This document shows, piece after piece, positions 1,737 to 61,514 of a stretch of 64,000 bases of DNA. Made by a program: the position numbers and the translations under genes. Source of the stretch: Mustelus asterias (lineage: Eukaryota); NCBI RefSeq assembly GCF_964213995.1, contig NW_027590128.1:124001-188000 (forward strand). The letters are read 5' to 3'. Every line of letters begins with the position of its first letter. Position 1 is the stretch's first letter. The notes under the pieces were generated by a model. That model had not been told where the DNA came from, ran no database searches, and was given only the letters and a program-made list of their open reading frames with translations.

Positions 1737-2117
1737 TCACTTGTGAACTCACTGGTGTTTCACCAAGTTTGCTGACTGAGTGAATCCCTTCCCAGTCAGA
1801 GCAGGTGACCAGCCTCTGCCTGGTGTGACCTCACTGGTGGGACATTAGTTCCCGAGAGCTTTTGAAGCCACGCCCACATTTAAAGGGTCTCTCCTGGGTG
1901 TGATGATGTTGTGTCTGGGCAGGCTGGATAACTGAGTAAATCCTTTAGCACACACCGAGCAGGTGAATGGTTTCTCCCCGGTGTGAACTCACTGGTGTTT
2001 CAGCAGTGTTGATGATATTCTAAACCTCCTTGAACAGTGAGAGCAGCTGAACGGCCTCTCCCCGGTGTGAATGTGCTCGGGGATCATCAGTTCCTGAGAG
2101 CTTCTGAAGCCGGCCTC
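1737..2117 (-). pseudogene. About 5 decayed C2H2 fingers downstream of the ZNF-1 stop
   Basis: Reverse strand shows [12 protein letters not shown] and [12 protein letters not shown] relics with CGA>TGA stops and indels, ending in the family-typical VHK-stop. Confidence 0.8.
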
Positions 2118-3071
2118 TCAGGCAGAGCATTTAAAGAGGCTCTCCTTGGAGTGAGTGGCTTTGTGTTTCAGCAAGCTGGATGAAGTAGTGAATCCCTTCC
2201 CACACACAGAGCAGGGGAATGGTCTTTCCACAGTGTGAACTCGCTGATGTTCCCACAGGTTGGATGGCCTTTTAAACCTCTTTGAGCAGTGAGAGCAGCT
2301 GAACGATCTCTCCTCAGTGTGAATGCGCTGGTGGGACACTAGTTCTCCAGAGCTTTTGAATCCGCTCCCACAGTCAGAGCATTTAAAAGGTCTCTCATTG
2401 GTGTGAGTGAGATTGTGTCTGCGCAGGTGGGATAACAGAGTGAATCCCTTCCCACACACAGAGCAGGTGAACGGTCTCTCCCCGGTGTGAACTCGCTGGT
2501 GTATCCGCAAGTTGTATAATGTTCTAAACCTCTTTGAGCAGTGAGAGCAGCTGAACGGTCTGTCCTCAGTGTGAATGCGCTGGTGGGACACCAGTTCCCC
2601 AGAGCTTTTGAATCCGCTCCCACAGTCAGAGCATTTAAAGGGTCTCTCATTGATATGAGTGACTCGGTGTGTCTTCAGGGTGAATGACTGAGTGAATCCC
2701 TTCCCACACTGAGAGCAGGTGAACGGTCTCTCCCCAGTGTGAACTCGCTGGTGAATCTGCAGGTTGGATGAAGTTCTAAATTTCTTTGTGCAGTGAGAGC
2801 AGCTGAATGGTCTCTCCTCAGTGTGAATGCGCTGGTGGGACATCAGATACTGAGAGCTTTTGAATCCACTCCCACAGTCAGAGCATTTAAATGGTCTCTC
2901 ATTGGTATGAGTGAGATTGTGTTTCTGCAGGCTGGATAACTGAGTGAATCCCTTCCCACACACACAGCAGGTGAATGGTCTCTCCCCAGTGTGACTGCGT
3001 TGATGAGTTTCCAGATCAGATGGGAACCTGAATCTCTTCCCACAGTCCCCACATTTCCACGGTTTCTCCAT
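2118..3071 (-). CDS. ZNF-1: C2H2 zinc-finger protein, 11 fingers, no effector domain seen
   Basis: [17 protein letters not shown]...; ATG at 3071 in CACCATGG context (the track starts at an upstream TTG); TGERP-type linkers. Confidence 0.9.
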
Positions 3072-4363
3072 GGTGCGGGTGTCCTTGTGACTCTCTAGGT
3101 TAAACAATCAGTTAAATCTCACACAGAACACAGGTACAGTCTCTCCCCGCTGTGAATGCTGCGATGTATTTTCAGGCTGTGTAACTGGTTAAAGCTCTTT
3201 CCACACTCAGTGCACTGGAACACTCTCACTCGGGTGTGTGTATCTCAGTGCATTTCTAGTCACAGTGATGTTTACAATCTTTTGAAGCCAAGAGGCCAAA
3301 CAAACATTTCTCCTGCTAGATTCAAAGGCCGATGATATTCAGGTCTCAAGAAATCGAGTCACTCTGTCAGATCTCGATGTGATGTTGGAGATTTCTGTCT
3401 GATTTCTCCTTGTCTAATATCCTGTAAGTCAATTTAGAAAAAAAACATCACAATTCAGAATATGATCGAAATTCAAATCGACATTTCTAGTTTCTATGGA
3501 GCATTCATTAAAGACACAGTCATGGAGCATTAAACTTGCCGAGCAGGGCCTCCCGTATCAGCACACAGGCAGCTGCTTTGTGAGACTGCCAGCAGTACAG
3601 ACAAGTCAGAGATAAGGGTGTCCTCAGAAGTGGGATTCATTGTGAAAGCTCAGGGACGGTTGATAAGATGCAGCAATTCTATGATTCTAATGAACATTCT
3701 TTCCTCTCCCATTCCCCAAAAGCTGTAAATCTCCATCCCACACACTCTCCCTCCATTCTCACTCTGCTGTATCTAATATTCACCCTCCCAATTCTCCTGA
3801 AGGTGCTGATTGAGGCTGATTGACAGATCCATGCTCACTGCTTCCTGTCCAGCACAGAAATCAGAACAAATAGGAGCTGCAGTCAGCATTCGACCCATCG
3901 AGTCTGCTCAACCATTCATTGAGATTATTGGTTGATCTACCTCTGCATTATTTTCCCCACACTGCCCCCATATCCATCGATATCTTCAATATCTAGAAAC
4001 CTATCAATCCCTCTCTTGAAAATTTTTGATGACTGAGGCTCTATAGTCCTCTGGGGTAGAGAATCCAAAACATCACCACATCCTTGAGTGAAGAAATCCT
4101 CATCTGAGCTTTCTCTCCATTTTCCAGCCTGTTCCCAATAATTATTGACTCCCTTGTCATTCAAAAACTGTCTAACTCATCCTTGAATATATTCAATCCC
4201 TCCACTGGTCCCTATGGAAGAGAAATCTAGATACTAACAATTCTCTGAGGGAAGAGATTGTTGGAAATATATAATATAGCTGCAGTCCAAAATTACACAG
4301 CCAGATATAATAAGTGTATTTTATTACAGAGCTATAAATAATATATCGAACCATATAACAACA

Positions 4364-4755
4364 GGGGAGCGGATAGCCTCGCGGTATTATCGCTAGACTA
4401 TTAATCCAGAAACTTAGCTGATGTTCTGGGGGACCCGGTTCGAATCCCACCATGGCAGATGGTGGAATTTGAATTTAAAAACAAAATCTAGAATTAAGAA
4501 TCTACTGATGACCATGAAATCATTGTCGATTGACCAGAAAAACCCATCTGGTTCATTAATGTGCTTTAGGGAAGGAAATCTGCCGTCCTTACCCAGTCTG
4601 GCCTACATGTGACTCCAGAGCCACAGCAATGTGGTTGACTCTCAACCAGCCTCTGAAATGGCCTAGCGAGCCATTCAGTTCAAGGGCAAATAGGGATGGG
4701 CAATAAATGTTGGCCCAGCCGGCAATGCCCGTGTCCCAAGGATGAATAAAAAACA
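4364..4755 (+). mobile_element. tRNA-derived SINE with Deu-like core and L2-type tail (SacSINE1/DeuSINE-like)
   Basis: B-box-like ggttcgaatccc, core gggaaggaaatctgccgtccttacc..ctggcctacatgtgactcc, tail gggatgggcaataaatg..gatgaataaaaaa. Family name from recollection, not a database search. Confidence 0.65.
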
Positions 4756-5437
4756 CCATCAGACACGTCTCTGTCCGATATTAGTTTACTGTCCCCTTTA
4801 ATATATTTCAGAAATTAGATGGGCACATGAAGGAAATAAAGTTGCAGGGGAAAGGGAATATAGAAAGGGAATGGGACTGACTGGATTCTTCTACAGAGAG
4901 TCGGCATGGATTCGAGTTACTGAATGGACTCCTTCTGCGCTGTAATGACTCGATGAGTGGAAATATATAACATAGTTTCAGTGCTACATTACAAAATGAG
5001 AAATAATAATAAATGTACTTTGTTACAGAACCATAAATAATATATCAAATCTACAATGTAACAACACTAAGCATATCTCTGTCCTATATTAATTTATTGT
5101 TCTCTTAAATGTCAGCCATCTCCTGGGGAAACCAGCCCTTGAATTGTGAACATTCGGAAAGGGACCATCCTTTTAGCCAGACAAATCAATGTGTCAAGCT
5201 GAGGGAGCAAAGGATGTCAATGTCTTTAAGTCAGAGAGAGGGGGACCTGAGCCAACCTTTCCAGAGTCTGCAGCCTCCCTGGATTCACTTCCTTTCCCTT
5301 CAGTTGCTGCAAGTCCCCAATTTCCCCCAGAATGAGAAAAGAAATGGAAAGGGGGATAAAAGAATGTGTTTTACTCACAGATGTGGGCGACAGAAGGAAG
5401 TTTGAGTCTGTCTGTACTCAATATTCATTCAGAGAGA

Positions 5438-7022
5438 CCTCTTTTTAGGTCAAACCAAACCAAGTAAACAAACTCAGATTAAATCAGGACAAAGTAAAAG
5501 GGGCAGCTCCCCAAAAAGGAGGGGGAACAGCCCGAACAGAAATCAAAATACAAAGGAAACTTAAAAACATCAAATTAAAATGTGATTATTAGGGTCAATA
5601 ATGCACCCCAACCCCTGCGGTGCCCAGCGGGCGCGGAAGGCGTCAACCTCGCCCGTGGACACCACATGCTCCCTCTCCAGGGACACCTGGCCGCGAACGT
5701 AGCCGCGGTAGAGGGGAAGACAGTCAGGATGGACGGCCCCCTCGATCGCCCGCAGCCTGGACCGGTAAATGGCGCGTTTCGCCAGGCCCAGGAGCAGGTT
5801 CACGAGGAGGTCGCCATCCCGACCCTCCCCTCTCCGCACCGGGTGTCCGTAGATCAGGAGCGTGGGACTGAAGTGCAGACAAAACATCAACAAAAGGTTC
5901 TTTAGGAAAACATAAAGGGAGTGCAGCCTAAGACACTCAACATAGACATGGTCCACGGACTCCACAAGGCCGCAGAAAGGGCAGTCTTCGGAGCCCGTGA
6001 ACCAGTGAATCCTACGGTTGTGCGGAACTGCTGCATGCATCACCCTCCACCCCAGGTCCCCGACGTAATTGGGGGAGATCCCTCCGTAGAGGGACCTCCA
6101 CTGAAGACCTCCACTGCCCGGCAGCAACAAGGCCCGCCAAGATGTATCCGGGCGACAGGCGAGGAGGCAGTAGTGGAGGGTATGCAGCAGCAGCCCGCAC
6201 AGGAAACGCCTCCGCGCGCTAGAAAAAGGCACGGATGACATTTCCGCGAGGCGGCTCAGGCTGTGGGGCACCTCACCCAGGGGAGGGGACTGAGGCTTTG
6301 GGCCAATGCGGAATTCCGCCCGAACAGGGGAACGCTCGGGCGGGATTCCACCGCAAGCATGTGCCGCCTCAAGACCGCGTGCACTTTTGGGGCCGAGCAT
6401 GACCGTCCTAAGGTCTTGGATGGCTTTGGCTTTGGACACCCCCGCGCGCTCAGCACGTCCCCGATTCTGGTCACCCCGGCGTCCACAGCCCTCCTCTCCA
6501 CCAGCCACCTGAAGTTATACGGCTGGAGGAGCGGATTCCTGAGCAGCGGCGCTCGCACGAGAGCCGCTACTCCTGACGGGAGGGAGCTGCGTCGCGAGTC
6601 GACCGTGTTCCAGACAGTGAGGAGGTCCTGGTAAAAGACGGGCAACTCCTGCAGGGTGGTGGAAGCACGCCCCAGTTCGATATGCAGGAGCTGCACGTCA
6701 TAATTGAGGCCGTGCCACTGGCGGAAGAAATACGTCGCCATGGCTCACCACTGTGGAGGGGGCTCAACGTAAAGGTACCTCTGCAGGGCCTGGAGGCGGA
6801 AGGTCGCTATCTGAGTGCGGAGGCACACCAGACCTTGTCCGCCCTCCTCAAGCGGGAGATGCAGAACCGCAGCAGGGACCCAGTGCAGTCGATTGTCCCA
6901 GAAGAACCGCAGGAGGGTTCTCTGGATATTGGCTACAAAGCCAGGGGGAGGGGTCAAAGGGACCAGCCGGTACCACAGCATGGAGGCGAACACCTGGTTT
7001 ATGATGAGAACTCGCGCCCGTG
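5438..7022 (-). mobile_element. Tx1-clade non-LTR retrotransposon, 5'-truncated ORF2 C-terminus plus 3' UTR
   Basis: RARVLIINQVFASMLWYRL, HLPLEEGGQGLVCL and the zinc knuckle CPFCGLVESVDHVYVEC across frameshifted ORFs; GC-rich; 3' end cctaaaaagagg is shared with the copy at 40740-41402. Confidence 0.85.
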
Positions 7023-7357
7023 AATGGTCACAAACACTCACCTCTGAAACAATTTAACTGATTTTAACATTAAAATCTCCTGCTGGAGCCTGCAGCTGGA
7101 CTGATGCGTTGGCATCAGAGAAAAATCTCCCAGTTGAGCAAATCCCCGGGGAGCGGGGGTGATGTCACTGTGCAATTGTAAGTATGCGATGAGATCACAG
7201 ACAGGAACACAGAATACCTGGGTCTGTGCAAACCAGTGATCACCACACATTATGGAGGATGTGAGGCTCCTTGACCAGGTGCATAGGAGATTTATCAAAG
7301 TGGTTCCAGGGATGAGGAATTATAGTTCCAATGTTAGGCTGGATAACTTGGGGTTGT

Positions 7358-8806
7358 TTGTCTCGTCACTGGACGCAGGTGAGGTCCCAGAGGATTGGAG
7401 GATAGCTAATGTGGTCCTGTTATTTAAGAAGGGTAGGAAGGATAACCGGGGTAATTATAGGCCGGTGAGCTTGACGTCCGTGGTGGGGAAGTTGTTGGAG
7501 AAGATTCTTAGAGATAAGATGTATGCGCATTTAGAAAGGAATAAACTCATTAACGATAGTCAGCATGGTTTTGTGAGAGGGAGGTCATGCCTCACTAACC
7601 TGGTGGAGTTTTTTGAAGAAGTGACCAGAATGGTTGACGAGGGAAGGGCCGTGGATGTCGTCTATATGGACTTTAGTAAAGCGTTTGACAAAGTCCCTCA
7701 TGGTAGGCTGGTGAAAAGGGTTGGATCTCATGGGATAAAGGGGGAGGCGGCTAGATGGGTGGAGAACTGGTTTGGTCACAGAAGACAGAGGGTCTTTTTC
7801 CGGCTGGAGGCCTGTGACTAGTGGTGTTCCGCAGGACTCTGTATTGGGACCTCTGCTGTTTGTGATTTATATAAACGATCTGGAAGAAGGTGTAACTGGG
7901 GTGATCAGTAAGTTTGCGGACGACACAAAATTGGCAGGACTTGCAGATAGTGAGGAGCATTGTCAGAAGCTACAGAAGGATATAGATAGGCTGGAAATTT
8001 GGGCAAAGGAATGGCAGATGGAGATCAATCCGATAAATGCAAAGTGATGCATTTTGGTAGAAATAATGTGGGAGGAGCTATACGAGAAATGGCAGAACCA
8101 TAAAGGGTGTAGATACGCAGAGGGACCTGGGTGTGCAAGTCCACAGATCCTTGAAGGTGACGTCACAGGTGGAGAAGGTGGTGAAGAAGGCATATGGCAT
8201 GCTTGCCTTTATAGGACGGGGCATAGAGTATAAAAGTTGGGGTCTGATGTTGCAGATGTATAGAACGTTGGTTCGGCCGCATTTGGAATACTGCGCCCAG
8301 TTCTGGTCGCCACACTACCAGAAGGACGTGGAGGCTTTGGAGAGAGTACAGAGGAGGTTTACCAGGATGTTGCCTGGTATGGAGGGGCTTAGTTATGAGG
8401 AGAGATTGGGTAAACTGGGGTTGTTCTCCCTGGAAAGACAGAGGATGAGGGGAGACTTAATAGAGGTGTACAAAATTATGAAAGGCATAGATAGGGTGAA
8501 CGGTGGTAAGCTTTTCCCCAGGTCGGTGGTGACGTTCACAAGGGGTCATAGGTTCAAGGTGAAGGGGGGGAGGTTTAACACAGATATCAGAAGGACATAT
8601 TTTACACAGAGGGTGGTGGGGGCCTGGAATGCGCTGCCAGGCAAGGTGGTGGAGGCGGACACACTGGGAACGTTTAAGACTTATCTAGATAGCCATATGA
8701 ACGGAGTGGGAATGGAGGGATACAAAAGAATAGTCTAGTTGGACCAGGGAGCAGCACGGGCTTGGAGGGTCGAAGGGCCTGTTCCTGTGCTGTATTGTTC
8801 TTTGTT
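7358..8806 (+). mobile_element. Young CR1 LINE 3' fragment nested in an older CR1 remnant
   Basis: VPEDWRIANVV..NYRPVSLTSVVGK, YMDFSKAFDKVPH, KFADDTK, HLEYCAQFWSPH; older CR1 text resumes on both sides. Confidence 0.92.
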
Positions 8807-8904
8807 GTGCTCCTTAGAGCAAAGTAGATTGATAGAGGTGTACAAGGGTACATGGAGGTGTCAAAGTTTACATGCTCTGTTTACACGTGTACAAGCTCTG
8901 TCTA

Positions 8905-9000
8905 TGGGTCATCCAGTCTCAAAACGTTGGTTCTATTCTCTCTCCACAGATGCTGTCAGATCTGCTGAGATTTTCCAGCATTTACTGTTTTTATTTTCCT
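8905..9000 (+). repeat. Family-2 PLE-type short repeat fragment
   Basis: gggtcatccagtctcaaaacgttgg..gatgctgtcagatctgctgagattttccagcatt; same family as 21240, 32470, 40378, 42722 and 62752. Confidence 0.65.
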
Positions 9001-9139
9001 TTCTTTTTCCTTCTCTGTCACCGCTCTGCCTCATCAATAAGAGATTGGGACTCAGACGGTTGATGCAGTTTGATGGACAAGTTGTCTCCATTCTGAACAC
9101 TGGGGAACAAGCTCCTCCCACTGATTGACAACATTGCCC

Positions 9140-9570: not shown

Positions 9571-9640
9571 CAATAATAACAGTAAGAAGTTTAACAACAC
9601 CAGGTTAAAGTCCAACAGGTCTATTTGGTAGCAAACGTCA

Positions 9641-9677
9641 CACAAGCTTTCGGAGCCTCAAGCCCCTTCTTCAGGTG
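9641..9677 (-). ncRNA. Minimal hammerhead ribozyme motif (PLE family 1, inverted pLTR)
   Basis: RC reads CAC CUGAAGA A GGGGC uugag GCUCC GAAA GC UU GUG. Confidence 0.7.
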
Positions 9678-10868
9678 AGTGGGAATTCTGTTCACAAACA
9701 GGGCTTATAAAGACATAGACTCAATTTACAGAATAATGGTTGGAATGCGAATCCTTGCAACTAATCAAGTCTTAAAGGTACAAACAATGTGAGTGGAGAG
9801 CTTCCACTCTAAACACGTTAAAGAAGCCATCCCCTGCGGACAGGCCCTCCGTATACACAGGATCTGCTCGGATGAGGAGGATCGCAACAGACACCTCCAG
9901 ATGCTGAAAGATGCCCTCATAAGAACAGGATATAGCGCTCAACTCATTGATCGACAGTTCCGACGCGCCACAGCGAAAAACCGCACCGACCTCCTCAGAA
10001 GACAAACACGGGACAAGGTGGACAGAGTACCCTTCGTCGTCCAGTACTTCATCGGAGCGGAGAAGCTGCGGCATCTCCTCTGGAGCCTTCAACATGTCAT
10101 TGATGAAGACGAACATCTCGCCAAGGCCATCCCCACACCCCCACTTCTTGCCTTCAAACAACCGCACAACCTCAAACAGACCATTGTCCGCAGCAAACTA
10201 CCCAGCCTTCAGGAGAACAGTGACCACGACACCACACAACCCTGCCACAGCAACCTCTGCAACACGTGCCGGATCATCGACACAGATGCCATCATCTCAC
10301 GTGAGAACACCATCCACCAGGTACACGGTACATACTCTTGCAACTCGGCCAACGTTGTCTACCTGATACGCTGCAGGAAAGTATGTCCCGAGGCATGGGA
10401 CATTGGGGAAACCATGCAGACACTGCGACAACGGATGAATGAACATCGCTCGACAATCACCAGGCAAGACTGTTCTCTTCCTGTTGGGGAGCACTTGAGT
10501 GGTCACGGGCATTCAGCCTCTGATCTTCGGGTAAGCGTTCTCCAAGGCTGCCTTCACGACACATGACAGCGCAGAGTCGCTGAGCAGAAACTGATAGCCA
10601 AGTTCCGCACACGAGGACGGCCTCAACCGGGATATTGGGTTCATGACACACTATCTGTACTCCCCACAGCTTGCCTGGACTTGCAGAGTCTCACTGGCTG
10701 TCCTGTCTGGAGACAATACACATCTCTTTAGCCTGTCTTGATGCTCTCTCCACTCGCATTGTTTGTACCTTTAAGACTTGATTAGCTGTAAGTATTCGCA
10801 TTCCAACCACTATTCTGTAAATTGAGTTTGTGTCTTTATGTGCCCTGTTTGTGAACAGAATTCCCACT

Positions 10869-10905
10869 CACCTGAAGAAGGAGCTTAAGGCTCCGAAAGC
10901 TTGTG
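10869..10905 (+). ncRNA. Minimal hammerhead ribozyme motif (PLE family 1, 3' pLTR)
   Basis: CAC CUGAAGA A GGAGC uuaag GCUCC GAAA GC UU GUG: stem I CAC/GUG, stem II GGAGC/GCUCC, palindromic AAGCUU in place of stem III. Confidence 0.75.
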
Positions 10906-13089
10906 GCTTTTTCTACCAAATAAACCTGTTGGACTTTAACCTGGTGTTGTTAAACTTCTTACTGTGTTTACCCCAGTCCAACGCCGGCATCTCCACATTA
11001 GCAATAACAGAGTCTCAGTGTAACAATGACACACACAGGCTCCAATACAATCAGAGTGGAGATGGGGCACAGAGACAACACAGCAAAGCACTGACTTACT
11101 CTGAGTGTAACAAATACAATGTTTGTTCAAATAATAAGAGTCACGTTGCAGTATGTTAGCGAACACAGCATTGGATCCAATGTAATGGTAATACAGTCAG
11201 TATCTCGTGCACCATAACCAAAGTTTCGGTTTCATTTGATAGTGTGAGTGAGTCATGGTCTATTGATATAATGTATTTAGATTCCGGTGTGTGTTACTCT
11301 GCCACTGTCATTATCAGACAATAGCCTGTCTGTTATTCCAATTCTGCTGTATTCTACAACTGCAGTTTCAGTGTCTCTGAGGTCATTTTAACTGCAGGTA
11401 ATCTGACATTAATGGAGACACGAGGCCCAACAAACATTTGATTATAATAGGAGGACAAAGTGTAAGGGAACAATGATATTTTAAGGTGTCTGTGTTGTGG
11501 TGAGTGTCACTGGGAGGTGAGTGATAAAATACAAGTGGAAACATCATGACAGAGACATGTGACTGACTCGGCCTGACTGAGAGCTGTTATACTCGAGGCG
11601 AGAATAATGAGGACATGGGGAACTCCAGGGATTTCTGATATCTGAGGTGTATCTGTTAGAGGAACTGAAAATAATCAGTTCTTCCTCATGGTTATCTCCA
11701 GTTCTCAAGTTACACAGACACACAGGAAAGAGATCTGACAGCTCATCAAACCCAATATTTTAATCTTCTGTTTGAGACACATTATAATCGAAAAGATCAA
11801 ATATTAAAACCTGAGGAGAGAAACATTCAGAATGTCACAAGGATGAGTGAACTGTCTAATTAATCCCATTCACCATAACTTTGCCAATTTATCCTCTGCA
11901 AGTATTTATCCAATTCCCTTTGAAAGCTACTATCAAACTTGCTTCTAGCACCTGTCAGTTAGTGCATTCCAGATCATATGAAGTTATTGTGTAAAACATT
12001 CTCCTTATCACCCCCTCCAGTTCTGTTGTCAATTAAATTAAATCTCTGTGTCCTCTGCTTACAGACCTTCCTGCACGGAGGAAATCGATTCTCTCCATCG
12101 ACAAACCCTCGTGCTCCTGGGAGATAATTTCTCTCCATTGACACTATCATAAATTATTTGTCATTTTAAACACCTCTATTAAATCTCCCAGCACATTCCC
12201 CAACCTAAGATGGATAACCCATGTTTCTCCTGCCCTGAAGAATTATATGGACTCAAAATGTTAACTCTGAACAGATGCCGCTGGACCTGCCGGGTTTTTC
12301 TGCTTTTCTCCCTGTCATTCCTTCCATAATCAATCAGAAACTCTTCATGATTTTGAACATCTTGATCAAATAGGAACAATCAGAGCCTGAGAGAGATACA
12401 GAGGGAGAGACAGAAAGAAAAATTGAGAGATTTTAAAAAGCAGAAAGATGAGGTGGTCAAAGATAAAAGCTGAGAAACAGAGGAAACAAGCAATACAGAG
12501 AGAATGCTCTGTATGTAAGGGAGCAGGCTATCAGTTCCCAGCTGTGGGGAGCACAGGGAACTCAGTAACTGATCCACAGACACAGCTGGTTATATCTGCG
12601 AATGGAAACTCTGAACAGAAATAACTGGCTCATTTGTAAATGTCACCACAATGTGACCTGTGTGACTCTGCCCTGACTCTGTGGACAGATAAAGGCCGCA
12701 TTGACAGATGTTCTCACCAGATTGTTGTGCCTGGATTTATTTTCTGCTCAGAAGTGAGATGTGCGTTTTTGAACCGGCAGCAGAGAAACAGGAAGTTGTG
12801 ATACCTGAGAATGAAACAACCGGCGTCAGTTTGATGTTATCACCGTGAACAGTCTTCCTGCCTGTGAGGGTGAACTCACTCTGACAGCATCAAGAACAAC
12901 CACACAGATTGCTGCCGCTCTCAGCATTACATTCACCTCCATTCCCATTTTAAACAATAAAGAAAGGAGATTATTTGGATTTTTAACACATTCACTGAAT
13001 TGGGAGATGGACTGAGGGTCATCACTGGGAGAAATGAGGAGGAATTAGAGAACAAATGAGTTTTCCCAAAGAGGGTTATTAGAAAAGAG

Positions 13090-13540: not shown

Positions 13541-14444
13541 CACACCCAGGGGTCACTGAGAATGATCAAAATAAGGAGATCACCCAGAAAACTACCAACA
13601 GGAAACTTCAGCTGAACACATCACTCATTCTTAAATGGTCAGTCAGGGCTCCGATGCTGCTCAGCTTCTCTCTGTTCTGTTTATAATGGTTAAAGGCTGA
13701 TAGGAGTGAGGTTTATTTAATAGGATAGTGTATGGGAAGCACACAACAAAACTGAGAATTCTTGGACACACACTGCAGCTCCTTCTCTATCTGGGAATCA
13801 AATTGTTGTCTCATTGTCCCAGCAGTTAGCAGGGTCCTTTGAACTTCTCCAGCTGCTACTTTAATGCAGACTTCAACCAATTTATTTGAAGCCAGTTTCT
13901 GTTCAATAAACCAGGACTGACACACACACATTAAAATGTTTTACACTTTTTTTCATTCTAAGTCTGGAAACCTAAACCTGCCGTTTCACTCTCAGTCAGG
14001 AATAGATCCCAGTTTTACACCAATCTTTGACAGCACGTTTCCCGCATTCACCGTTGTTCTTCCTGACTCTAAACACAGTTGTAAAGGAGCTTCTGTTCTG
14101 TGTCTGGGAGCTCTGAACCATGGAAAAGAACGACTGGGACACATTTCTTACACACCTCAGGATTCACCCACGCGGGGACTTTGCTGTCAGTGAAAAGTGA
14201 CGAAAAAGACCAAAGTGCTGTGTGACCCTCTCAGCGAGACCCTGAAGGACTGTGTCAAGAATGAAGTTCTGTTCCTACTGTATGATCCTCCCTCAGATTG
14301 CCCTTTCTGAGCTCCAGCCTGGTGACGTTAAACACTCAAATGGAAAAGACAAAAATCTACAACAATGGTTCAATCAAATGTCTATTTCACATTTATTCAG
14401 AATATCAAACCTCAACAGAAGAAAAAAGTCAGAGAGAACATGAT

Positions 14445-15591
14445 TCAGACCTGGATATGATTAACAGCATCAATAAGTGTAGAATCCAAACCTTGCAGTC
14501 GTTTGTGAACTCGCCGGTGTGTTAGCAGGTGGGATGACTGAATAAATCCCTTTCCACAGACATTACAGGTGAATGGCCTCTCCCCAGTGTGAACTCGCTG
14601 GTGTTTCAGAAGATAAGATAAATGAGAAAATCCCTTCCCACAGACAGAGCAGGTAAATGGCCTCTCCCCACTGTGAACTCTCTGATGTGTCAGCAGGTTG
14701 GATGACTGACTGAATCCCTTCCCACACATGGAGCAGGTGAACGGCCTCTCCCCAGTGTGAACTCGCTGGTGATTCAATAGGTTGGATGAACGAGTGAATC
14801 CCTTCCCACACACGGAGCAAGTGAATGGCCTCTCCTCACTGTGAACCTGCTGGTGTGTCAGAAGGTTGTATGAACGGGTGAATCTCTTCCCACATTCAGA
14901 GCAGGTGAACGGTCGATCCCCTGTATGGAGCTGCTGGTGTATCAGAAGGTTGGATGAATTAATGAATCCCTTCCCACAGTCTGAGCAGGTGAAGGGCCTC
15001 TCCCCAGTGTGAATTCTCTGGTGGTTCAATAGGGCAGGTGGACGGCTGAATCCCTTCCCACACACACAGCAGGTGAATGGCCTCTCCCCAGTGTGAGTAT
15101 ATTGGTGCGTCAGCAGATCCTTTTTGTTTTTAAAGCTCTTCGCACAGTGGGAACAATTAAAAAGTTTGTTATCAGAGTGAACAAGTTGATGTGTCTGCAG
15201 GTGGGATGACTGAATGAATCCTTTCCCACACAGAGCAGGTGAATGGTCTCTCCCCAGTGTGAATACGTTGGTGCGTCAGCAGATCTTTTTTGCATTTAAA
15301 ACTCTTCTCACAGTCAGAACATGTAAACATTCTCTCATCTGTGTGAACAAGTTGGTGTGTCACAATGTGGGATGAGCGAGTGAATCCCTTCCCACACACA
15401 GGGCAGGTGAACGGCCTCTCCCCAGTGTGAACCCGTCGGTGAGTCAGAAGGTTGTATGAATGGGTGAATCCCTTCCCACAAACAGAGCAGGTGAACGGTC
15501 TCTCCCCAGTGTGACTGCGCCGATGAACTTCCAGTTGTGATGGGAAACCGAATCCTTTCCCGCACTCCACACATTTCCACGGTTTCTCCAT
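14445..15591 (-). pseudogene. ZNF-2: 13-finger array with one 2-bp frameshift in finger 5 (pseudogene, truncated allele or assembly error)
   Basis: [10 protein letters not shown]..; cccacacagag at ~15225-15235 lacks one CA unit of the usual cccacacacagag; downstream frame is open through 14445. Confidence 0.85.
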
Positions 15592-16159
15592 GGTGCCCTT
15601 GTGTTTCTCCAGGTTGGATGATCAGTTCAAGCCACATCCACACACACAACATACACGTAGTTTCACCCTGCTGTGAACTGTGATGTTTTTTCAGGCTGTG
15701 TAACTGGTTAAAGCTCTTTCCACATTCAGTTCACTGGAACACTCTCACTCGGGTGTGTGTTTGTCTCGATGCTTTTCCGGTCATACTGATGTTTAATTTA
15801 TTTGCCCACAGGCAGAACAGACAAATATTTCTCTTTCTATATTCAAAGACCGATGATATTCAGCTCCGAAGGAACTGAATGACTTTGTCAGATGTGATGT
15901 CCGGTTTGAGTTTTCTGTCTGCCAATCTTTCACTTCCAATATCCTGTAAAAACAGTTTAGAAAAGTCATCACTGTCAGAACACGATACAAACTCTGAACA
16001 GACAATTCTAGTTTCTCTGGAACATTTTTTCCTTTCTTGTTCCCCCAAATCAGTAAATCCCCATCCCACCCACACACTCTCCCTCCTCCCTGGGCTGAAA
16101 TCCAAACCCATCTCACCATTTCTTTCCTCCACTCCCAGTTTTCTCCCTCCCTCTCCTCT

Positions 16160-16893: not shown

Positions 16894-17334
16894 CTGCGGG
16901 TAGGGTAACGAACTTTGCAGACGACACAAAGATAAGTGGAAAAGTGAATCGTGTGGAGGACGGAGAAGATCTGCAGAGAGATTTGGACAGGCTGAGTGAG
17001 TGGGCGAGGATATGGCAAATGGAGTACAACGTTGAGAAATGCGAGGTTATACACTTTGGAGGAAATAATAACAAATGGGATTACTATCTCAATGGAAACA
17101 AATTAAAACATGCTACCGTGCAAAGGGACCTGGGGGTCCTTGTGCATGAGACGCAAAAGCCCAGTCTGCAGGTACAACAGGTGATCAAGAAGGCAAATGG
17201 GATGTTGGCCTATATTGCGAAGGGGATAGAATATAAATGATGTGGAGATGCCGGCGTTGGACTGGGGTAAACACAGTAAGAAGTTTAACAACACCAGGTT
17301 AAAGTCCAACAGGTTTATTTGGTAGCAAAAGCCA

Positions 17335-17371
17335 CACAAGCTTTCGAGGCTCTGAGCCCCTTCTTCAGGTG
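17335..17371 (-). ncRNA. Minimal hammerhead motif (left palindrome arm)
   Basis: Mirror image of 17430-17466. Confidence 0.7.
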
Positions 17372-17429
17372 AGTGGGAATTCTGTTCACAAACAGAACTT
17401 AAGTTCTGTTTGTGAACAGAATTCCCACT

Positions 17430-17466
17430 CACCTGAAGAAGGGGCTCAGAGCCTCGAAAGCTTGTG
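17430..17466 (+). ncRNA. Minimal hammerhead motif (right palindrome arm)
   Basis: CAC CUGAAGA A GGGGCU cag AGCCUC GAAA GC UU GUG. Confidence 0.72.
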
Positions 17467-18154
17467 TGGCTTTTGCTACCAAATAAACCTGTTGGACTTT
17501 AACCTGGTGTTGTTAAACTTCTTACATAGAATATAAAAGCAGGGATGTCTTGATGCACCTGTACAGGGCATTGGTGAGGCCGCAGCTGGAATACTGTGTG
17601 CAGTATTGGTCCCCTTATATGAGGAAGGATATATTGGCATTGGAGGGAGTGCAGAGAAGGTTCACCAGGTTGATACCGGAGATGAGGGGTTTGGATTATG
17701 AGGAGAGGCTGAGGAGATTGGGTTTGTACTCGTTGGAGTTTAGAAGGATGAGGGGGGATCTTATGGAGACTTATAAGATAATGCGGGGGCTGGATAGGGT
17801 GGAGGCGGAGAGATTCTTTCCACTTAGTAAGGAAGTTAAAACTAGAGGACACAGCCTCAAAATAAAGGGGGGTCGGTTTAAGACAGAGTTGAGGAGGAAC
17901 TTCTTCTCCCAGAGGGTGGTGAATCTCTGGAATTCTCTGCCCACTGAGGTGGTGGAGGCTACCTCGCTGAATATGTTTAAAGCGCGGATGGATGGATTCC
18001 TGATCGGTAAGGGTATTAAGGGTTATGGGGATCAGGCGGGTAAGTGGTACTGATCCACGTCAGATCAGCCATGATCTTATTGAATGGCGGGGCAGGCTCG
18101 AGGGGCTAGATGGCCTACTCCTGCTCCTATTTCTTATGTTCTTATGTTCTTATG

Positions 18155-18418
18155 TAATGGCGACGGACGGCCGGTTTTAGTTTGGAAGCGAGATCAATAC
18201 GAGGTAGAGGGCGGCGTGCGGGGAATGATAAATGTGGCGGGTGGGTCGAGAGGCTTTGTAAACATGTTGTTCAAACCCAAACCCCGGAAATGAACTTCCC
18301 GGTTCCCCCCCTTTGTACCAAATGGAGCGGCAGCTTGTAGTGTTAGACCCGGGCTGACTGCCGCCATTGAGGCTGCATGTGGGAGGCCGGCAGGGATTGT
18401 GATCGGAGAGTGAAGCCC
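18155..18418. promoter_or_regulatory. CpG-rich promoter-like segment
   Basis: ETS-like CCGGAAA and ACTTCCCGG, YY1-like GCCGCCATTG, GC-rich boxes. Confidence 0.5.
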
Positions 18419-18585
18419 TGACGTCACAATGGAATGGGTGAGGGTGTGACGTCACAATGGAATGGGTGAGGGTGTGACGTCACCATGGAATGGGTGAGGG
18501 TGTGACATCACAATGGAATGGGTGAGGGTGTGACGTCACAATGGAATGGGTGAGGGTGTGAGGTCACAATGGAATGGGTGAGGGT
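18419..18585. repeat. 28-bp minisatellite x6 carrying CRE palindromes
   Basis: Unit tgacgtcacaatggaatgggtgagggtg; four units keep a perfect TGACGTCA. Confidence 0.95.
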
Positions 18586-18634
18586 TCCAGATGAGCTGAG
18601 ACTGGGCTGGAGTCTGGCGATGGCACTGACATGT

Positions 18635-18791: not shown

Positions 18792-19176
18792 ATGTGCCGG
18801 CGTTGGACTGGGGTAAGCACAGTAAGTAATCTCACAACACCAGGTTAAAATCCAACAGGTTTATTTGGTAGCACAAGCCACAAGCTTTCAGAGCACTGCC
18901 CCTTCATCAGGTGAGTGGGAGTTCTGTTCACAAACAGGGCATATAAAGACACAAACTCAATTTACAAGATAATGGTTGGAATACGAGTCTTTAAACGTAA
19001 TCAAGTCTTAAAGGTACAGACAATGTGAGTGGAGAGAGGGTTAAGCACAGGTTAAAGAGATGTGTATTGTATCCAGCCAGGACAGTTAGTGAGATTTTGC
19101 AAGCCCAGGCAAGTCGTGGGGGTTACAGATAGTGTGACATGAACCCAAGATCCCGGTTGAGGCCGTCCTCATGTGT
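18792..19176 (-). mobile_element. PLE family 1 3' fragment; hammerhead motif at 18879-18913
   Basis: Tail, pLTR and last ORF codons; RC CAC CUGAUGA A GGGGC agu GCUCU GAAA GC UU GUG. Confidence 0.88.
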
Positions 19177-21237: not shown

Positions 21238-21427
21238 TAAAAGCAAATTACTGCGGATGCTGGCGTCTGAAACCAAGGGAGAAAATGCTGGAAAATCTCA
21301 GCAGGTCTAGCAGCATCTGTAAGGAGAGAAAAGAGCTGATGTTTCTTGACGAAATGACCCTTTGTCAAAGCTCTGAAACATCAGTTCTTTTCTCTCCATC
21401 CAGGTGCTGCCAGACCTGCTGAGAATG
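21238..21427. repeat. Family-2 PLE-type repeat with fold-back structure
   Basis: ctcagcaggtctagcagcatctgtaaggagagaaaagagctgatgtttc is inverted as gaaacatcagttcttttctctccatccaggtgctgccagacctgctgag; duplicated at 62752-62940. Confidence 0.75.
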
Positions 21428-21904
21428 GGGAGAGAGTGTGTGGGATGGAGATTTACAGCTTTTGGGGAATGAGAGAGGAAAGAATGTTCCATAGAAATTG
21501 TTCTGAATTTCTATCCTGTACTGACACTGATGACTTTTGGAAACTCATTTTCAGGATATTGAAAGAGGAATCACAGGCCGAAATCTCAAACGTCATGTCT
21601 CGGCGTGACAGAATCGTGTTCCTTGGGACCTCAATATCATCGGACTTTGAATCCAGAAGGAGAAATGATTGTCCAGTCTGTCGATTTGAAAAGATTTGAA
21701 ATGTCAGTGTGAGTGAAAAAGCATCAACACACTGCCACACTTGAGTGAGAGTGTTCCAATGCACTGACTAAAGAGCTTCAACCAGTTACACAGTCTGAAT
21801 AAATATCACACCATTCACAGCGGTAGAGACTGTAATCTTGTCCTGTGTGTGGACGAAGTTTCAACTGATTGTCCACCCAAGAGTGAGGCAAGGAAACCTG
21901 CACC

Positions 21905-22579
21905 ATGGAGAAACCATGGAAATGTGGGGACTGTGGGAAGGGATACAGAGCCCCATGTCTGCTGGAAGCTCATCGGCGCAGCCACACTGGGGAGAGGCTG
22001 TTCATCTGCCCTGAGTGTGAGAAGGGATTTAATCAGTTCTCCAGCTTACGGACACACCAACGAGTTCACACTGGGGAGAGACCATTCACCTGCTCTCAAT
22101 GTGGGAAGGGATTCATTCAGTCATCCCACCTGCGGACACACCAGCGAGTTCACACTGGGGAGAGGCCATTCACCTGCTCTCAGTGTGGGAAGGGATTCAC
22201 TCAGTTATCCAGCCTGCAGACACACCAGCGAGTTCACACTGGGGAGAGGCCATTCACCTGCTCTCAGTGTGGGAAGGGATTCACTCAGTTATCCAGCCTG
22301 CAGACACACCAGCGAGTTCACACTGGGGAGAGGCCGTTCACCTGCTCTCAGTGTGGGAAGGGATTCACTCGGTTACCCGACCTGCGGACACACCAGCGAG
22401 TTCACACAGGGGAGAAACCATTCACCTGCTCTCAGTGTGGGAAGGGCTTCACTCGGTCATCCACCCTGCGGACACATCAACCAGTCCACACTGGGGAGAG
22501 GCCATTCACCTGCTCTCAGTGTGGGAAGGGTTTCAGCGTTTCATCCCGGCTGCTGAGACACCAGCGAGTTCACGAGTGA
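21905..22579 (+). CDS. ZNF-3: 8-finger C2H2 protein with a highly homogenised array
   Basis: 224 aa = 8x28; CACCATGG start; candidate acceptor tttcag|GATATT at 21554. Confidence 0.92.
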
Positions 22580-32469: not shown

Positions 32470-32620
32470 AAGTAAAACAAAAACAGAAAATGCTGGAAAA
32501 TCCCAGCAGATCTGACAGTATCTGTAGGGAGAGAATCGAGCCAACGTTTCAAGTCTGGAAGACCCTTCATCAGAGCTCCTATGAAGTGTCACCTCGACTC
32601 AAAATGTTGGCTCTATTCTC
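32470..32620. repeat. Family-2 PLE-type repeat, fold-back
   Basis: aaaacagaaaatgctggaaaatcccagcagatctg..gagctc followed by a decayed inverted copy. Confidence 0.7.
32538..32578 (-). ncRNA. Minimal hammerhead motif (family 2)
   Basis: RC GAGCU CUGAUGA A GGGUC uucca GACUU GAAA CG UU GGCUC; palindromic AACGUU in place of stem III. Confidence 0.62.
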
Positions 32621-33303: not shown

Positions 33304-34072
33304 CAGTTTAATTCTAACTCATTCTGAGTAAATATTCTCACCAGGTCCTCTGTTGGGGCCCTGCTGAGCAGCTTTAATGGTCCGTGATTGCAGAAACTGA
33401 GCAGTCACAGGAATGTGGTCAAGATAGTCCAGTCCCATAATGCCTCACATTCAATCTGCAGTCCTTCAATTATAACAGAATATGTGGCTGTATGTAGCTG
33501 CCTCGGCCGTGGTCAACCCCAACACTGCCTTCCTGAACTGCTACAATGCCTGAGGTGTAAGTACACCCACAGTGCTGTTAGGGAGGGATTTCCAGCTACA
33601 CATTCCAGACTTTCACTAGACTGTAGGTGGATATCAGATTGATATATTCCATTCAACCACACCCAAGATGAGTTATTCCAATTCCTTTATTGTCCAGGAC
33701 AATATATTCACAATATCTTTAAAACAGAAATTAAACATTCCCATTTGATTTCAGGTATTAACATATTCTGTTAGTTTGTTCTTTATTGTCAATGTCAGGC
33801 TGGGGTTGTTCCCTTGGAGCAAAGGAGGTTGAGGGGAGATTTGATAGAGGTGGACAAGATTCTGACAGGTTTAGATAAGGTGGACAAAGAAAAGCTGTTC
33901 CCATTAGCTGATGGGACAAGGATGAGGGGGACACAGATTTATGGTTTTGGGTCAGAGATGCAGGGGGGTCACCCTTCGACCCTCCCCATTGACCAACTGA
34001 GAGAATGAACAAAATGCAGTCCTGGGTGTAATTGAGAGCAGAAACAATAACAGCAGAATCCAACCTCTGAAA

Positions 34073-34663
34073 TCACTCGTGAACTCGCTGGTGTCTCAAC
34101 AGGTGGGATGACTGAGCGAATCCCTTCCCACACTGAGGGCAGGTGAATGGCCTCTCCCCAGTATGAATGTGCTCATGTGCCCGCAGGTTGGATGAACAAG
34201 CAAATCCCTTCCCACACTGAGAGCAGATGAATGGCCTCTCCCCAGTGTGAACTCGCTGGTGTATCCGCAGGTCAGATGACCGAGTGAATCCCTTCCCACA
34301 CTGAGAGCAGGTGAATGGCTTCTCCCCAGTGTGAACTCGCTGGTGCCTCCGCAGGCTGGATAAATGACTGAATCCCTCCCCACACTGAAAACACGTGAAC
34401 AGCCTCTCCCCAGTGTGAACTCGCTGGTGTGTCAGCAGGTTGAATGACTGAATGAATCCCTTCCCACACTGAGAACACATGAACGGTCTCTCCCCAGTGT
34501 GAACTCGCTGGTGTCTCTGCAGGTTGAATGACTGAGTGAATCCCTCCCCACACTGAGAGCACATGAATGGTCTCTCCCCAGTGTGGTTGCGCCGATGAGC
34601 TTCCAGCTCATTTGGGTATCTGTATCTCTTCCCACAGTCTGCACATTTCCATGGTTTCTCCAT
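34073..34663 (-). CDS. ZNF-4: 7-finger C2H2 protein, inverted paralog of ZNF-3
   Basis: ATG at 34663 in CACCATGG; 196 aa = 7x28; 5' and 3' flanks match ZNF-3. Confidence 0.92.
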
Positions 34664-35759
34664 GGTGCAGGTGTCCTTGCCTCTCTCTTGTGTGGACAAT
34701 CCGTTGAAGCCTCGTCCACACACAGAACACGGGTACAGTCTCTCGCTGCTGTGAATGATGTGATATTTATTCAGGCTGTGTAACTGGTTAAAGCTCTTTA
34801 GTCAGTGCGCTGGAACACTCTCACTCGAGTGTGGCAGTGTGTTGGTGCTTTTCCAGTCACACTGATGTTTGAAATCTTTTCAAATCAACAGACCGGACAA
34901 TCATTTCTCCTTCGAGATTCAAAGTCCGATGATATTGAGCTCCCAAGGAATATGACTCTGTCAGATCTGACATGACGTTTGAGATTTCGGGCTGTGTCTC
35001 TTTCAATGTCCTGTGAAATTAGTTTACAAAAGTCATCAGTGTCAGTACAGGATAGAAAGTCAGAACAGGATTCTATTTAAAAATGAAAGTGGATGGGCAC
35101 TTGAAGGAAATAAACTTTCAGGAGAATGGGGATATAGAGTGGGAATGGGACTGGAATGTTATACAGAGAGTCAGCATGGACTCGAGTTACCAAATGTATT
35201 CCTTCTGTGCTGTAATGACTTTATGACTGGAAATGTATAACATCGCTACAGCATTATATTACAATGCAAGAAATAATAATAAATACAGAAACATAAATAA
35301 TTTATCTAATCTGGGTACCATATAATAACACTAGACATATCTCTGTCCTATATTAATTTACTGTCCCCTTAAATATCAGCCATCTCCTGCCCTTTAATTG
35401 TGAACATTAGGAAAGAGACCATCCTTTTAGACAGAAAGAAGATTAACGTTTCAGGGTGGGCAGAATGAATTACAGGGAATAAAAATGTATCAGATTTTGT
35501 TGGTTAATATAAGCTCAGAAGTGGAAGGGAAATGATCTCCAGTGGAAGAGAAACAGTTCCTGAACATTGTAAGACTAAGCTGGTCACTCAGCAGTGAATA
35601 GAGTTGTGAAGTGGTAAAAACCTCATCAAGACATAGCTTGTGGAAATAATAGTTAAAATACACCCATTATTAGAGGCAGAGGAAGGTAGACAATGGCAGA
35701 GAGCTGATCAGGGAGGGCAGAGGTGAAACAGAGAAATGGATGGTCGTTTAAAAATTCAT

Positions 35760-39897: not shown

Positions 39898-40619
39898 GTA
39901 AAAGGAATTTACAAAAGTCATCAATGTCAGTACAAGATAGAAATTCAGAACAGACAGTTCAAGTTTCTATGGAACATTCTTTCCTCTCTCATTCCCCAAA
40001 AGCTGTAAATCTCCATCCCACACACTCTCTCTCCATTCTCACTCTGCTGTATCTAATATTCACCCTCCCAATTCTCCTAAAGATGCTAATTGAGGCTGAT
40101 TGACAGATCCATGCTCACTGCTTCCTGTCCTGGACACAGGGAGCTGAAAATCTCCATGCAGGCTGCCAGACAGATGTCTATAATACTGGATAAAAGTGTA
40201 ATATACAGGACATTATTTGAATAGTGACAGAGCAGGGATTTGAGGAAGATTTATACTTGGGTAGGGAGAGCACATGATCTGGAACTCGCTGCCTAAAAGG
40301 ATGGTGGAACAGAAGATGAATGGGAAATACATCTCATGATATAGTGGGATCTGGAAAGCAGAATTTATTTCCCTTTCCAAAAGAGAAAATGCTGGAAAAT
40401 CTCTGCAGGTCTGGCAGCATCTGTGAGGAGAGAAAAGAGCTGACATTGAGGCCGGATGACCCTTTGTCAAAGCTATTTCCCTTTCTTTCCTTCTCTGCCA
40501 CCGCTCTGCCTCATCAATAAGACATTGGGACTCAGAGGGTTGATGCAGTTTGATGGACAAGTTGTCTCCATTCTGAACAATGGGGAACAAGCTCCTCCCA
40601 CTCAATGACAACATTGCCC

Positions 40620-41894: not shown

Positions 41895-42710
41895 TGAAGT
41901 GGAGATGCCGGCGTTCGACTGGGGTAGGCCCAGTAAGAAGTCTCACAACACCAGGTTAAAGTCCAACAGGTTTATTTGGTAGCACAAGCCATAAGCTTTC
42001 GGAGCGCTGCCCCTTCATCAGATGAGTGGGAGTTCTGTTCACAAACAGGGCATATAAAGACACAAACCCAATTTACAAAATAATGGTTGGAATGCAAGTC
42101 TTTACAGGTAATCAAGTCTTAATGGTACAGACAACGTGAGTGGAGACAGCATTAAGCACAGGTTAAAGAGATGTGTATTGTCTCCAGCCAGGACAGAAAG
42201 TGAGATTTTGCAAGTCCAGGCAAGTTGTGGGGGTTACAGATAGTGTGACATGAACCCAAGATCCTGGTTGAGGCCGTCCTCATGTGTGCGGAACTTAGCT
42301 ATCAGTCCCTGCTCAGCGACTCTGCGTTGTTGTGTGTCATGAAGGCCGTCTTGGAGAACGCTTACCCGAAGATCAGAGGCCGAATTCTATGAATGCCTGT
42401 GACTGTTGAAGTGTTCCCCAACAGGAAGAGAACACTCTTGCCTGGTGATTGTCGAGCGCTGTTCATTCATCCGTGGTCGTCTCGTCTGCATAGTCTCCCC
42501 AATGTACCATGCCTCGGGACATCCTTTCCTGCAACGTATCAGGCAGACAACGTTGGCTGAGTTGCAAGTGTATGTACCGTGTACCTGGTGGATGGTGTTC
42601 TCACGTGAGATGATGGCAGCCGTGTTGATGATCCGGCACGTCTTGCAGAGGTTGCTGTGGCAGGGTTGTGTGGTGTCGTGGTCACTGTTCTCCTGAAGGC
42701 TGGGGAGTTT
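41895..42710 (-). mobile_element. PLE family 1 3' fragment (GIY-YIG region plus pLTR); hammerhead motif at 41990-42024
   Basis: CNSANVVCLIRC..WYIGETMQT; RC CAU CUGAUGA A GGGGC agc GCUCC GAAA GC UU AUG; appears nested in a family-2 repeat (41835-41890 and 42722-42768). Confidence 0.9.
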
Positions 42711-44729: not shown

Positions 44730-45075
44730 TAAAATTCATTTTTACGGAATGTAGGCGTCACTTGCTGGGCCAGCATTTCTTTCCCATCCCTAACTGCCCT
44801 CCATTTCAGAGGGCATTTGAGAGTCAACCACATTGCTGGTCTGGAGTCACATGTAGGCCTGACCAAGTAAGGACGGCAGGTTTCCTTTTCTAAAGGACGT
44901 TACTGAATCAAATGGGTTTTTACGACAATTGATTAAAGGTTGAGGTTTGTCATTAGACTTTTAATTGAAGATTTTAATTGAATACAAATTTCACCATCGA
45001 CTGTGGTGGGATTCGAACCTGGGTCCCCAGAGCCTTACCCTGAGTCCAGTGATAATTCCACTGTGCCGCTGCCTC
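44730..45075 (-). mobile_element. DeuSINE-like SINE
   Basis: Reverse-complement match to 4364-4755. Confidence 0.65.
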
Positions 45076-51350: not shown

Positions 51351-51680
51351 TGATATGGAGATGCCGGCGTTGACTGGGGTAAAGACAGTAAGAAGTTTAA
51401 CAACACCAGGTTAAAGTCCAACAGGTTTATTTGGTCGCAAATGCCACTAGCTTTTGGAGCGCTGCCCCTTCGTCAGGTGGAGTGGAGAAATGCTCACAAA
51501 CAGGGCATACAGAGACACAAACTCAATTTACAGAATAATGATTGGAATGCAGTCTTTACAGATAATCAAGTCTTAAAGGTACAAACAATGTGAATGGAGG
51601 GAGCATTAAGCACACGTTAAAGAGATGTGTATTGTCTCCAGACAGGACAGCCAGTGAGATTCTGCAAGTCCAGACAAGCT
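51351..51680 (-). mobile_element. PLE family 1 pLTR; hammerhead motif at 51444-51480 with GAAA>AAAA
   Basis: RC CCAC CUGACGA A GGGGC agc GCUCC AAAA GC UA GUGG. Confidence 0.87.
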
Positions 51681-54896: not shown

Positions 54897-55445
54897 TGAT
54901 GTGGAGATGCCGGCGTTGGACTGGGGTAAACACAGTAAGAAGTTTAACAACACCAGGTTAAAGTCCAACAGGTTTATTTGGTAGCAAAAGCCACACAAGC
55001 TTTCGGAGCTCTGAGCCCCTTCTTCAGGTGAGTGGGAATTCTGTTCACAAACAGAACTTATAAAGACACACACTCAATTTACATGAATAATGGTTGGAAT
55101 GCGAATACTTACAACTAATCCAGTCTTTAAGAAACAAAACAATGGGAGTGGAGAGAGCATCAAGACAGGCTAAAAAGATGTGTATTGTCTCCAGACAAGA
55201 CAGCCAGTGAAACTCTGCAGGTCCACGCAACTGTGGGAGTTACAAATAGTGTGACATAAACCCAATATCCCGGTTGAGGCCGTCCTTGTGTGTGCGGAAC
55301 TTGGCTATCAGTTTCTGCTCAGCGACTCTGCGCTGTCGTGTGTCGCGAAGGCCGCCTTGGAGAACGCTTACCCGAATATCAGAGGCCGAATGCCCGTGAC
55401 CGCTGAAGTGCTCCCCAACAGGAAGAGAACAGTCTTGCCTGGCAA
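54897..55445 (-). mobile_element. PLE family 1 3' fragment; hammerhead motif at 54994-55030
   Basis: Intact C-terminus RQDCSLPVGEHF..EQKLIAKFRTHKDGLNRD; RC CAC CUGAAGA A GGGGCU cag AGCUCC GAAA GC UU GUG. Confidence 0.9.
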
Positions 55446-60777: not shown

Positions 60778-61335
60778 GATACTGGTGTCCTTATGTTTCT
60801 CCAGGTTAAACGATCAGTTGAAGCCTCATCCACACACAGAACACGTGTACAGTTTCTCCTTGCTGTGAATGGTGTGATGTTTTTTAAGGCTGTGTAACTG
60901 GATAAAGCTCTTTCCACAGTCAACTCACTGAAACACTCTCACTCGGGTGTGCGTGTATCTTGGTGCTTTTTCAGTCGCACTGATGTTTGAAATCTTCTCC
61001 TCCAGACAGAAGACAAACATTTCTCCTTCCACGTTCAAAGTCTGAGGATATTTAAGTCCAAGTGAATCGAGACTCTGTCTGATTTTGATGTGATGTTTCT
61101 TCACCTCACCTGTAAAAGGAGTTTACAAAATTAATCACTGTCAGTCCAGGATAGAAATTTTGAACAGGCAATTCTAATTCTCTGGAAAATTTCTTCCTCT
61201 CTTGTTCCCCAAATCAATAAATTCCTGTCCCACAAACTCTCCCTCCTCCCTGGGCTGAAATCCAAACCCACCTCACCATTTCTTTTCTCCACTCCCAGTT
61301 TGCTCCCTCCCTCTCCTCTGTCTGGGTTCAGTTCT

Positions 61336-61505
61336 GATGTGGAGATGCCGGCGTTGGACTGGGGTGAACACAGTAAGAGTTTTAACAACACCAGGTTAAA
61401 GGCCAACAGGTTTATTTGGTAGCAAACACCTAATGGTAGCGAATGGCGTTTGCTACCAAATAAACCTGTTGGACTTTAACCTGGTGTTGTTAAAACTCTT
61501 ACTGT
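61336..61505. mobile_element. PLE family 1 fold-back insertion, 63-bp arms and 20-bp spacer
   Basis: Arms 61365-61427 and 61448-61510; direct repeat gttcagttct at 61326-61335 and 61506-61515; empty site at ~16165. Confidence 0.9.
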
Positions 61506-61514
61506 GTTCAGTTC

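Follow-up and report, generated by a model that had tools for sequence, protein, structure and literature searches.

We consider it likely that the motif at positions 10869..10905 of the window (the whole stretch analysed here, 64,000 nucleotides of Mustelus asterias, positions 124,001 to 188,000 of contig NW_027590128.1) is the minimal hammerhead ribozyme (min-HHR) of a Neptune-type Penelope-like retrotransposon (PLE), situated at the 5′ end of the element transcript and cutting a minority of the germ-line RNAs, probably as a protein-assisted AGCU dimer, with the genomic copies being neutral. With somewhat less confidence, we also favor the view that the genome records this cleavage in vivo, such that the ribozyme would decap its own RNA about 37 nt past the start and both capped and cut ends would have been copied into thousands of insertions. 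If this is true, the 70-nt ribozyme stretch would serve in the rebuilding of the pseudo-LTR (pLTR), either as a counterpart of an LTR's R region or as a circularisation seam. New here is the footprint of insertion ends at the cut; the motif class itself, with its extra A and palindromic helix III, was published in 2014, when min-HHRs were described in the pLTRs of metazoan PLEs, including Xena, Poseidon and Neptune of fishes (Cervera and De la Pena, 2014; PMC4209133). In the literature within reach, neither insertion 5′ ends at an HHR cut nor this PLE family is reported.

All eight minimal hammerhead motifs that an earlier note had listed are present in the window at those positions and on those strands. 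The focal one (10869..10905, forward strand) is of type I, with a predicted cut after 10902, and is made up of CAC (10869-71), CUGAAGA (10872-78), an extra A (10879) and the stem-loop GGAGC/UUAAG/GCUCC (10880-94), followed by GAAA, GC, UU and GUG. A second copy (9641-9677, reverse strand) lies in an inverted pLTR fragment (9579..9800, reverse strand) that belongs to the focal insertion, and two more (17335-17371, reverse; 17430-17466, forward) make up a head-to-head fold-back insertion (17237..17525), for which one long hairpin of -160 kcal/mol is predicted. Two reverse-strand copies show CpG decay: that at 18879..18913 carries C11.1U, a G-U closing pair absent from the earlier list, and that at 51444..51479 indeed has the change from GAAA to AAAA described before, which is G12A and predicted to be dead. 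The copy at 54994..55030 (reverse strand) is of the youngest subfamily, and that at 41990..42024 (reverse strand) has a CAU/AUG stem I. The hammerhead at 32538..32578 (reverse strand), which had been overlooked, belongs to an older, second family in which helix III reads ACGU where the first has AGCU; second-family copies are also seen at 8876-9002, 21280-21392, 40379-40494 and 62783-62905, and are often short fold-backs that Rfam miscalls as miRNA hairpins. At 61335..61508 there is a short fold-back insertion without ribozyme core, the forward arm of which starts at, or a few bases from, the predicted cut, the junction being ambiguous. A strict descriptor (core, with stems II and I no shorter than 4 and 3 bp, respectively) matched eight times in the window, namely seven of the eight noted motifs and one at 32573, and had no match in any of 100 dinucleotide shuffles; 1.6 Mb of evenly spaced genome samples gave 53 matches and five shuffles none. 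An Rfam scan of the window matched no hammerhead family at E ≤ 10. Among the window copies N7 is A, U or C and H17 is U or A, as had been observed, whereas one comparison given for maintained pairing in stem II, GGGGC/GCCUC versus GGGGC/GCUCC, turned out to be a shifted wobble with no two-sided change.

The minimal hammerhead identity and the PLE pLTR context that had been suggested are both borne out, the focal motif lying within the 3′ pLTR (10663..10998, forward strand; AATAAA at 10919-10924, tail of about 36 nt at 10963-10998) of a PLE insertion. The end of the PLE ORF (9799..10654, forward strand) is 5′-truncated and broken, covers the RT thumb, a CxxxxCxxC linker and a GIY-YIG-type endonuclease, and is 95.6% identical to the intact element at locus L145. 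A genome search with the protein of the focal insertion found long open frames, and among 20 fetched loci intact pLTR-ORF-pLTR elements are present at L144 and L145, with same-sense motifs 3,097 nt apart; a similar motif pair is seen at L157. The 893-aa ORF between the two pLTRs of L144 and L145 matches RVT_1 (E=5e-10) and has a DKG motif, while the linker of the L145 ORF, CHSNLCKTC, fits CX2-5CxxC between RT and EN. The pattern VYLI...YIGET at the end of the ORF, recognised by eye, is taken here to be a GIY-YIG-type endonuclease; Pfam matched no GIY-YIG domain in the element ORF and gave no match for the 257-aa fragment of the window, nor did a PDB sequence search with the full ORF. Features of EN+ PLEs are there, namely direct pLTRs, an inverted 5′ pLTR and an optional tail, the latter corresponding to a pair of positions, about 63 and 100-105 nt downstream of the cut, where the insertions have their 3′ ends. 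A CX2-5CxxC linker marks the Neptune and Nematis PLEs (PMC8557442), and on its sequence the element appears to be of Neptune type, the choice of Neptune over Nematis resting on the vertebrate distribution given in the available part of the 2026 preprint. Two other candidates were rejected: the copies represent PLE insertions that are truncated and for the most part single or head-to-head, and not a non-LTR retrozyme with tandem non-coding repeats that each carry an HHR, and an intron around the ribozyme is opposed by a GTAAGT donor that is kept in one subfamily only and by a spliced joint that was never seen. The 55 nt that follow the cut (10906-10962 in the window, including AATAAA) are near-identical in the copies of all subfamilies, more than the ribozyme stems are, and are probably a protein-binding or priming signal. 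By comparison, loop II of the youngest subfamily occurs in about ten sequences, the neighboring pLTR being near-invariant (L050, L056, L057, L060, L102, L143-L161).

The family is as abundant as had been claimed. A profile of the downstream flank alone gave 134 matches in 160 samples of 10 kb from the 3.68-Gb genome; 84 of these extend past the ribozyme and 81 were kept, three having non-homologous upstream sequence. Extrapolation from the samples yields about 190,000 motifs, of which about 140,000 have an intact core. The variation among the 81 copies fits the hammerhead rules: N7 is A in 24, C in 27, U in 29 and G in one, H17 is U in 40, A in 21, C in 19 and G in one, and the stem I pair adjoining the core is C-G (50), U-A (23), U-G (4), C-A (3) or G-G (1), while the extra nucleotide between 9 and 10.1 is A throughout (81/81) and the 10.1-11.1 pair is G-C in 67 and G-U in 14. 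Since the differences in stem I, N7 and H17 lie between subfamilies, they count as few events. The proposed covariation shows between subfamilies and is confined to that level; what covaries is a single pair in stem I, a single pair in helix III (this one between the families) and the 3-8 core pair, each with one or few lineage events. In the second, older family, where ACGU replaces AGCU, 32 matches include the linked cores C3-G8 (14) and U3-A8 (13), and PLE-like protein remnants lie directly upstream of two copies. By contrast, the CAU/AUG stem of the copy at 41990, put forward as a compensatory change, is private to one insertion that was spread by segmental duplication. This exact variant has nine exact copies genome-wide, none of them on the large contigs C1-C26, and all four that were fetched share the flanks of the window copy at 99%; a transposing sub-lineage was accordingly rejected. 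CAU/AUG as such occurs in 11 of the first 100 of 801 matches listed, mostly on backgrounds other than that of 41990.

Indirect but well-controlled evidence of cleavage in vivo comes from where the insertions begin. Their 5′ ends were searched with genome patterns that reject intact copies and place no constraint on the cut region, the first 100 rows listed being counted by hand; the counts exclude leaked near-intact rows, fold-back partners and rows that are not diagnostic of the subfamily. Offsets are counted from the predicted cut (0), with positive values upstream, and scaled figures extrapolate these hand counts from the first 100 rows under an assumed base composition. In the youngest subfamily (first 100 of 3,644 listed), 34 diagnostic rows fall at 0 (18), +1 (6), +2 (6) and +3 (4), whereas uniform ends would place about 6 of the 34 at the cut (P ~1e-5). 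Two clear rows lie at -1 and 21 at -2 among the same first 100, the latter being a second peak of similar size 2 nt downstream, which coincides with the cut of subfamilies that are 2 nt shorter; it looks too large for those alone, and trimmed ends may contribute. When scaled, position 0 has about 2,300 events, compared with about 170 for each position at +8 to +11 and about 160 at +38 to +49, with about 470 at +7, where the palindrome AAGCTT is located, so that insertions starting exactly at the cut are roughly ten times commoner than at most nearby positions. In a second subfamily group (first 100 of 3,635 listed), 37 rows lie between -3 and +4, of which 18 are at 0/+1, seven at -1 and six at +2 (P=0.002), and 15 fold-backs among the listed rows are shaped as they would be had a cDNA with its end at the cut folded back on itself. 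In the old C17 subfamily no clear peak is seen at the cut, as mutated intact copies and stem I microhomology swamp the signal. All 16 listed loci that were fetched are true junctions at the cut or one base before it, with ribozyme sequence absent upstream; target-site duplications are present at several of them, and at three loci the two arms both begin at the cut. Most insertions run through the motif uncut, and in an unselected sample the 5′ end lies exactly at the predicted cut in 4 of 180 anchored matches. The cleavage site predicted earlier (after 10902 in the focal copy) thus gains indirect support, in that the amassing of insertion 5′ ends suggests that the RNA is cut there. As a separate observation, ORF-internal sequence is fused to a pLTR starting at or near the predicted cut at L202:187-360 and L092:9334-9562, as a template jump would give, and a comparable fusion is seen in one contig of sequencing run X1.

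A second pile-up of 5′ ends is found at +35 to +37, just before stem I, with 43 of the first 100 of 3,813 rows listed, some of which were counted as both arms of one fold-back. This pile-up, 35-37 nt upstream of the cut, likely marks the transcription start. A TATA-like box in L145 lies 35 nt before C3 and 29 nt upstream of the A at +37, and in five second-family copies such a box lies 34-36 nt before C3, while one large subfamily group is without it; in the focal copy the box is degenerate and the start would be at about 10866 (10835..10868, forward strand), just before stem I. Among the listed rows at +37, which are mostly fold-backs, a G precedes 10 of 13, and this G would be a base added opposite the cap. 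A pLTR with TATA/Inr-like signals has been described before (PMC3846280), and Drosophila Penelope is TATA-less (PMC2377424).

At the cut, too, a G is seen before seven of the 15 non-inverted junctions listed at 0/+1 for the youngest subfamily and before 3 of 4 junctions of the unselected sample. This excess would be expected if the hammerhead were a conserved structure that rarely or never cleaves, with the pile-up marking a second transcription start or a capped RNA end. In favor of this reading are also the pyrimidine-purine step that several subfamilies have at the cut and the finding that minimal HHRs are little active in vitro (PMC4209133). We nonetheless judge this explanation unlikely, because 37 nt upstream there is a better start candidate, which in two families has TATA-like spacing, the ends match the predicted scissile bond exactly in two subfamily groups that differ in their downstream sequence, and the fold-backs that recur at the cut can be explained without an added base. 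Quite improbable, in our estimate, is that the ends result from stalling of the reverse transcriptase at RNA structure or from template switching driven by microhomology. Many junctions of the family are microhomology fold-backs, such as those at AAGCTT at +7 (the about 470 events given above) and at GGGAATTCCC at +45, and stem I complementarity is seen in the old subfamily; however, stalling at stem II predicts +8, where the count is about background, stalling at helix III predicts +1, where the six rows equal what chance spill-over from 0 would give, and the junctions at 0 carry diverse upstream sequence and clean target-site duplications. Cleavage at the scissile bond in a minority of the RNAs is the reading favored here.

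With respect to how the motif would be cut, helix III is a palindrome in both families (AGCU in family 1, ACGU in family 2) and, as the earlier note had pointed out, is unable to fold within one molecule, monomer closure requiring a forbidden 2-nt loop. That the palindrome is kept across both families is the best argument from sequence for dimers, and dimer dependence would follow from it together with the literature, where small PLE hammerheads that cleave as dimers have been described (Lunse, Weinberg and Breaker, 2017, as cited in PMC6765202); a palindromic, very short stem III is common to those and to the present motif, the dimer cleavage being theirs. The predicted energy of the double hammerhead is -16.3 kcal/mol, versus -34.2 kcal/mol for a dimer with strand-swapped stem II, which is far more stable, and in longer sequence context stem I is missing from the minimum-energy fold. 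The folding energies hence disfavor an unaided double hammerhead, in accordance with the protein-assisted HHR cleavage reported for the Poseidon element PAc of Anolis (PMC11167929).

Taken together, the transcript would start about 37 nt before the cut, just ahead of the hammerhead, and a minority of the element RNAs would be cut and lose a capped leader of about 37 nt. The pairing partner may be the second pLTR 3.1 kb away or another transcript, and the element's own protein may assist, both by analogy with the literature. The reverse transcriptase would start 63-105 nt downstream of the cut, in the tail region, and run off either RNA end, after which the cDNA would fold back, join the target or jump template. 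Cleavage could serve the release from read-through RNA, circularisation or the limiting of the element.

Once inserted, the copies mostly decay neutrally. Substituted sites amount to 17/891 at non-CpG positions of core and palindrome (1.9%) and to 66/2744 in the downstream flank (2.4%; P=0.44), in copies that had been chosen via this same flank, so that the conservation of the core above the pLTR flank that had been anticipated is not seen in the sampled copies. Genome-wide, in one exact 23-base context, the lethal CpG change G12A occurs 5,271 times and the tolerated C11.1U 6,111 times, an excess of 16% that is significant but small and may be explained by sequence context. Of 31 adjacent motif pairs, 22 are head-to-head, five same-sense and four tail-to-tail, and 44 of the 81 sampled copies belong to head-to-head pairs, which by folding prediction would form long hairpins that sequester the motif. 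Neutral decay and head-to-head pairing leave a selected role in host transcripts unsupported, and the notion of a functional copy family cleaving there, which the earlier note had raised, was not upheld. Although the core is intact in 60 of the 81 sampled copies and same-sense neighbors do exist (the 5 of 31 pairs), it is most improbable that the dispersed copies are ribozymes kept functional and acting in host transcripts, given that the core is substituted at the rate of the flank, that G12A is almost as frequent as C11.1U in the context examined and that most adjacent pairs lock the motif in a hairpin. The selection evidence is compatible with an accidental, occasional cleavage of host RNA.

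With the min-HHRs of PMC4209133 the family has in common the type I core, the extra nucleotide at 9/10.1, G10.1-C11.1, the palindromic 15.2-16.2, a short helix I, thousands of dispersed single copies, covarying families, the U3-A8 core variant and the dimer model, whereas helix II is of 5 bp here, unlike there, and the copy number (about 190,000, extrapolated) compares with 4,000-9,000 in coelacanth and Xenopus; in vivo evidence is absent from the available text of that study, while here insertion ends map to the cut. As in PAc of Anolis carolinensis (Frangieh et al., 2024; PMC11167929), the HHR lies in the pLTR, two 3′ ends 30-40 nt apart (the tail) match internal RT starts, and most insertions stem from uncut RNA. 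The PAc ORF begins inside the HHR and the present one about 100 nt after the cut, the two elements being of different clades. According to the accessible part of that report, HHR mutants of PAc transposed normally in vitro and RNA-seq reads ending at the HHR cut were not seen, whereas genomic 5′ ends amass there in Mustelus. The element further resembles the Neptune/Nematis EN+ PLEs (PMC8557442, PMC3846280) in its RT with C-terminal endonuclease, CX2-5CxxC linker, 5′ truncation, inverted 5′ pLTR, one-sided tail, palindromic junctions and TATA/Inr-like pLTR signals. For tandem retrozymes, one chondrichthyan is covered in the accessible part of the 2026 preprint. Because the family is young and very abundant, has intact masters and leaves a footprint at the scissile bond that can be counted, cleavage becomes testable from genomes alone, and the footprint can be compared across species and between live- and dead-core lineages and names the exact RNA ends to be expected.

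Apart from the hammerheads, the window contains an inverted pair of 663 nt (5438-6100 and 40740-41402; 98% identity), which is probably a young mobile element. A 28-bp tandem repeat is present seven times at 18382-18633, mostly with TGACGTCA, which we assume to be a CRE-like word. Arrays of an 84-bp repeat occupy 1899-3122, 14421-15642, 21822-22541, 33995-34798, 45063-46505, 52286-53384, 59817-60813 and 63341-64000; they presumably represent a C2H2 zinc-finger gene cluster, and segmental duplicates of the region lie on several smaller contigs.
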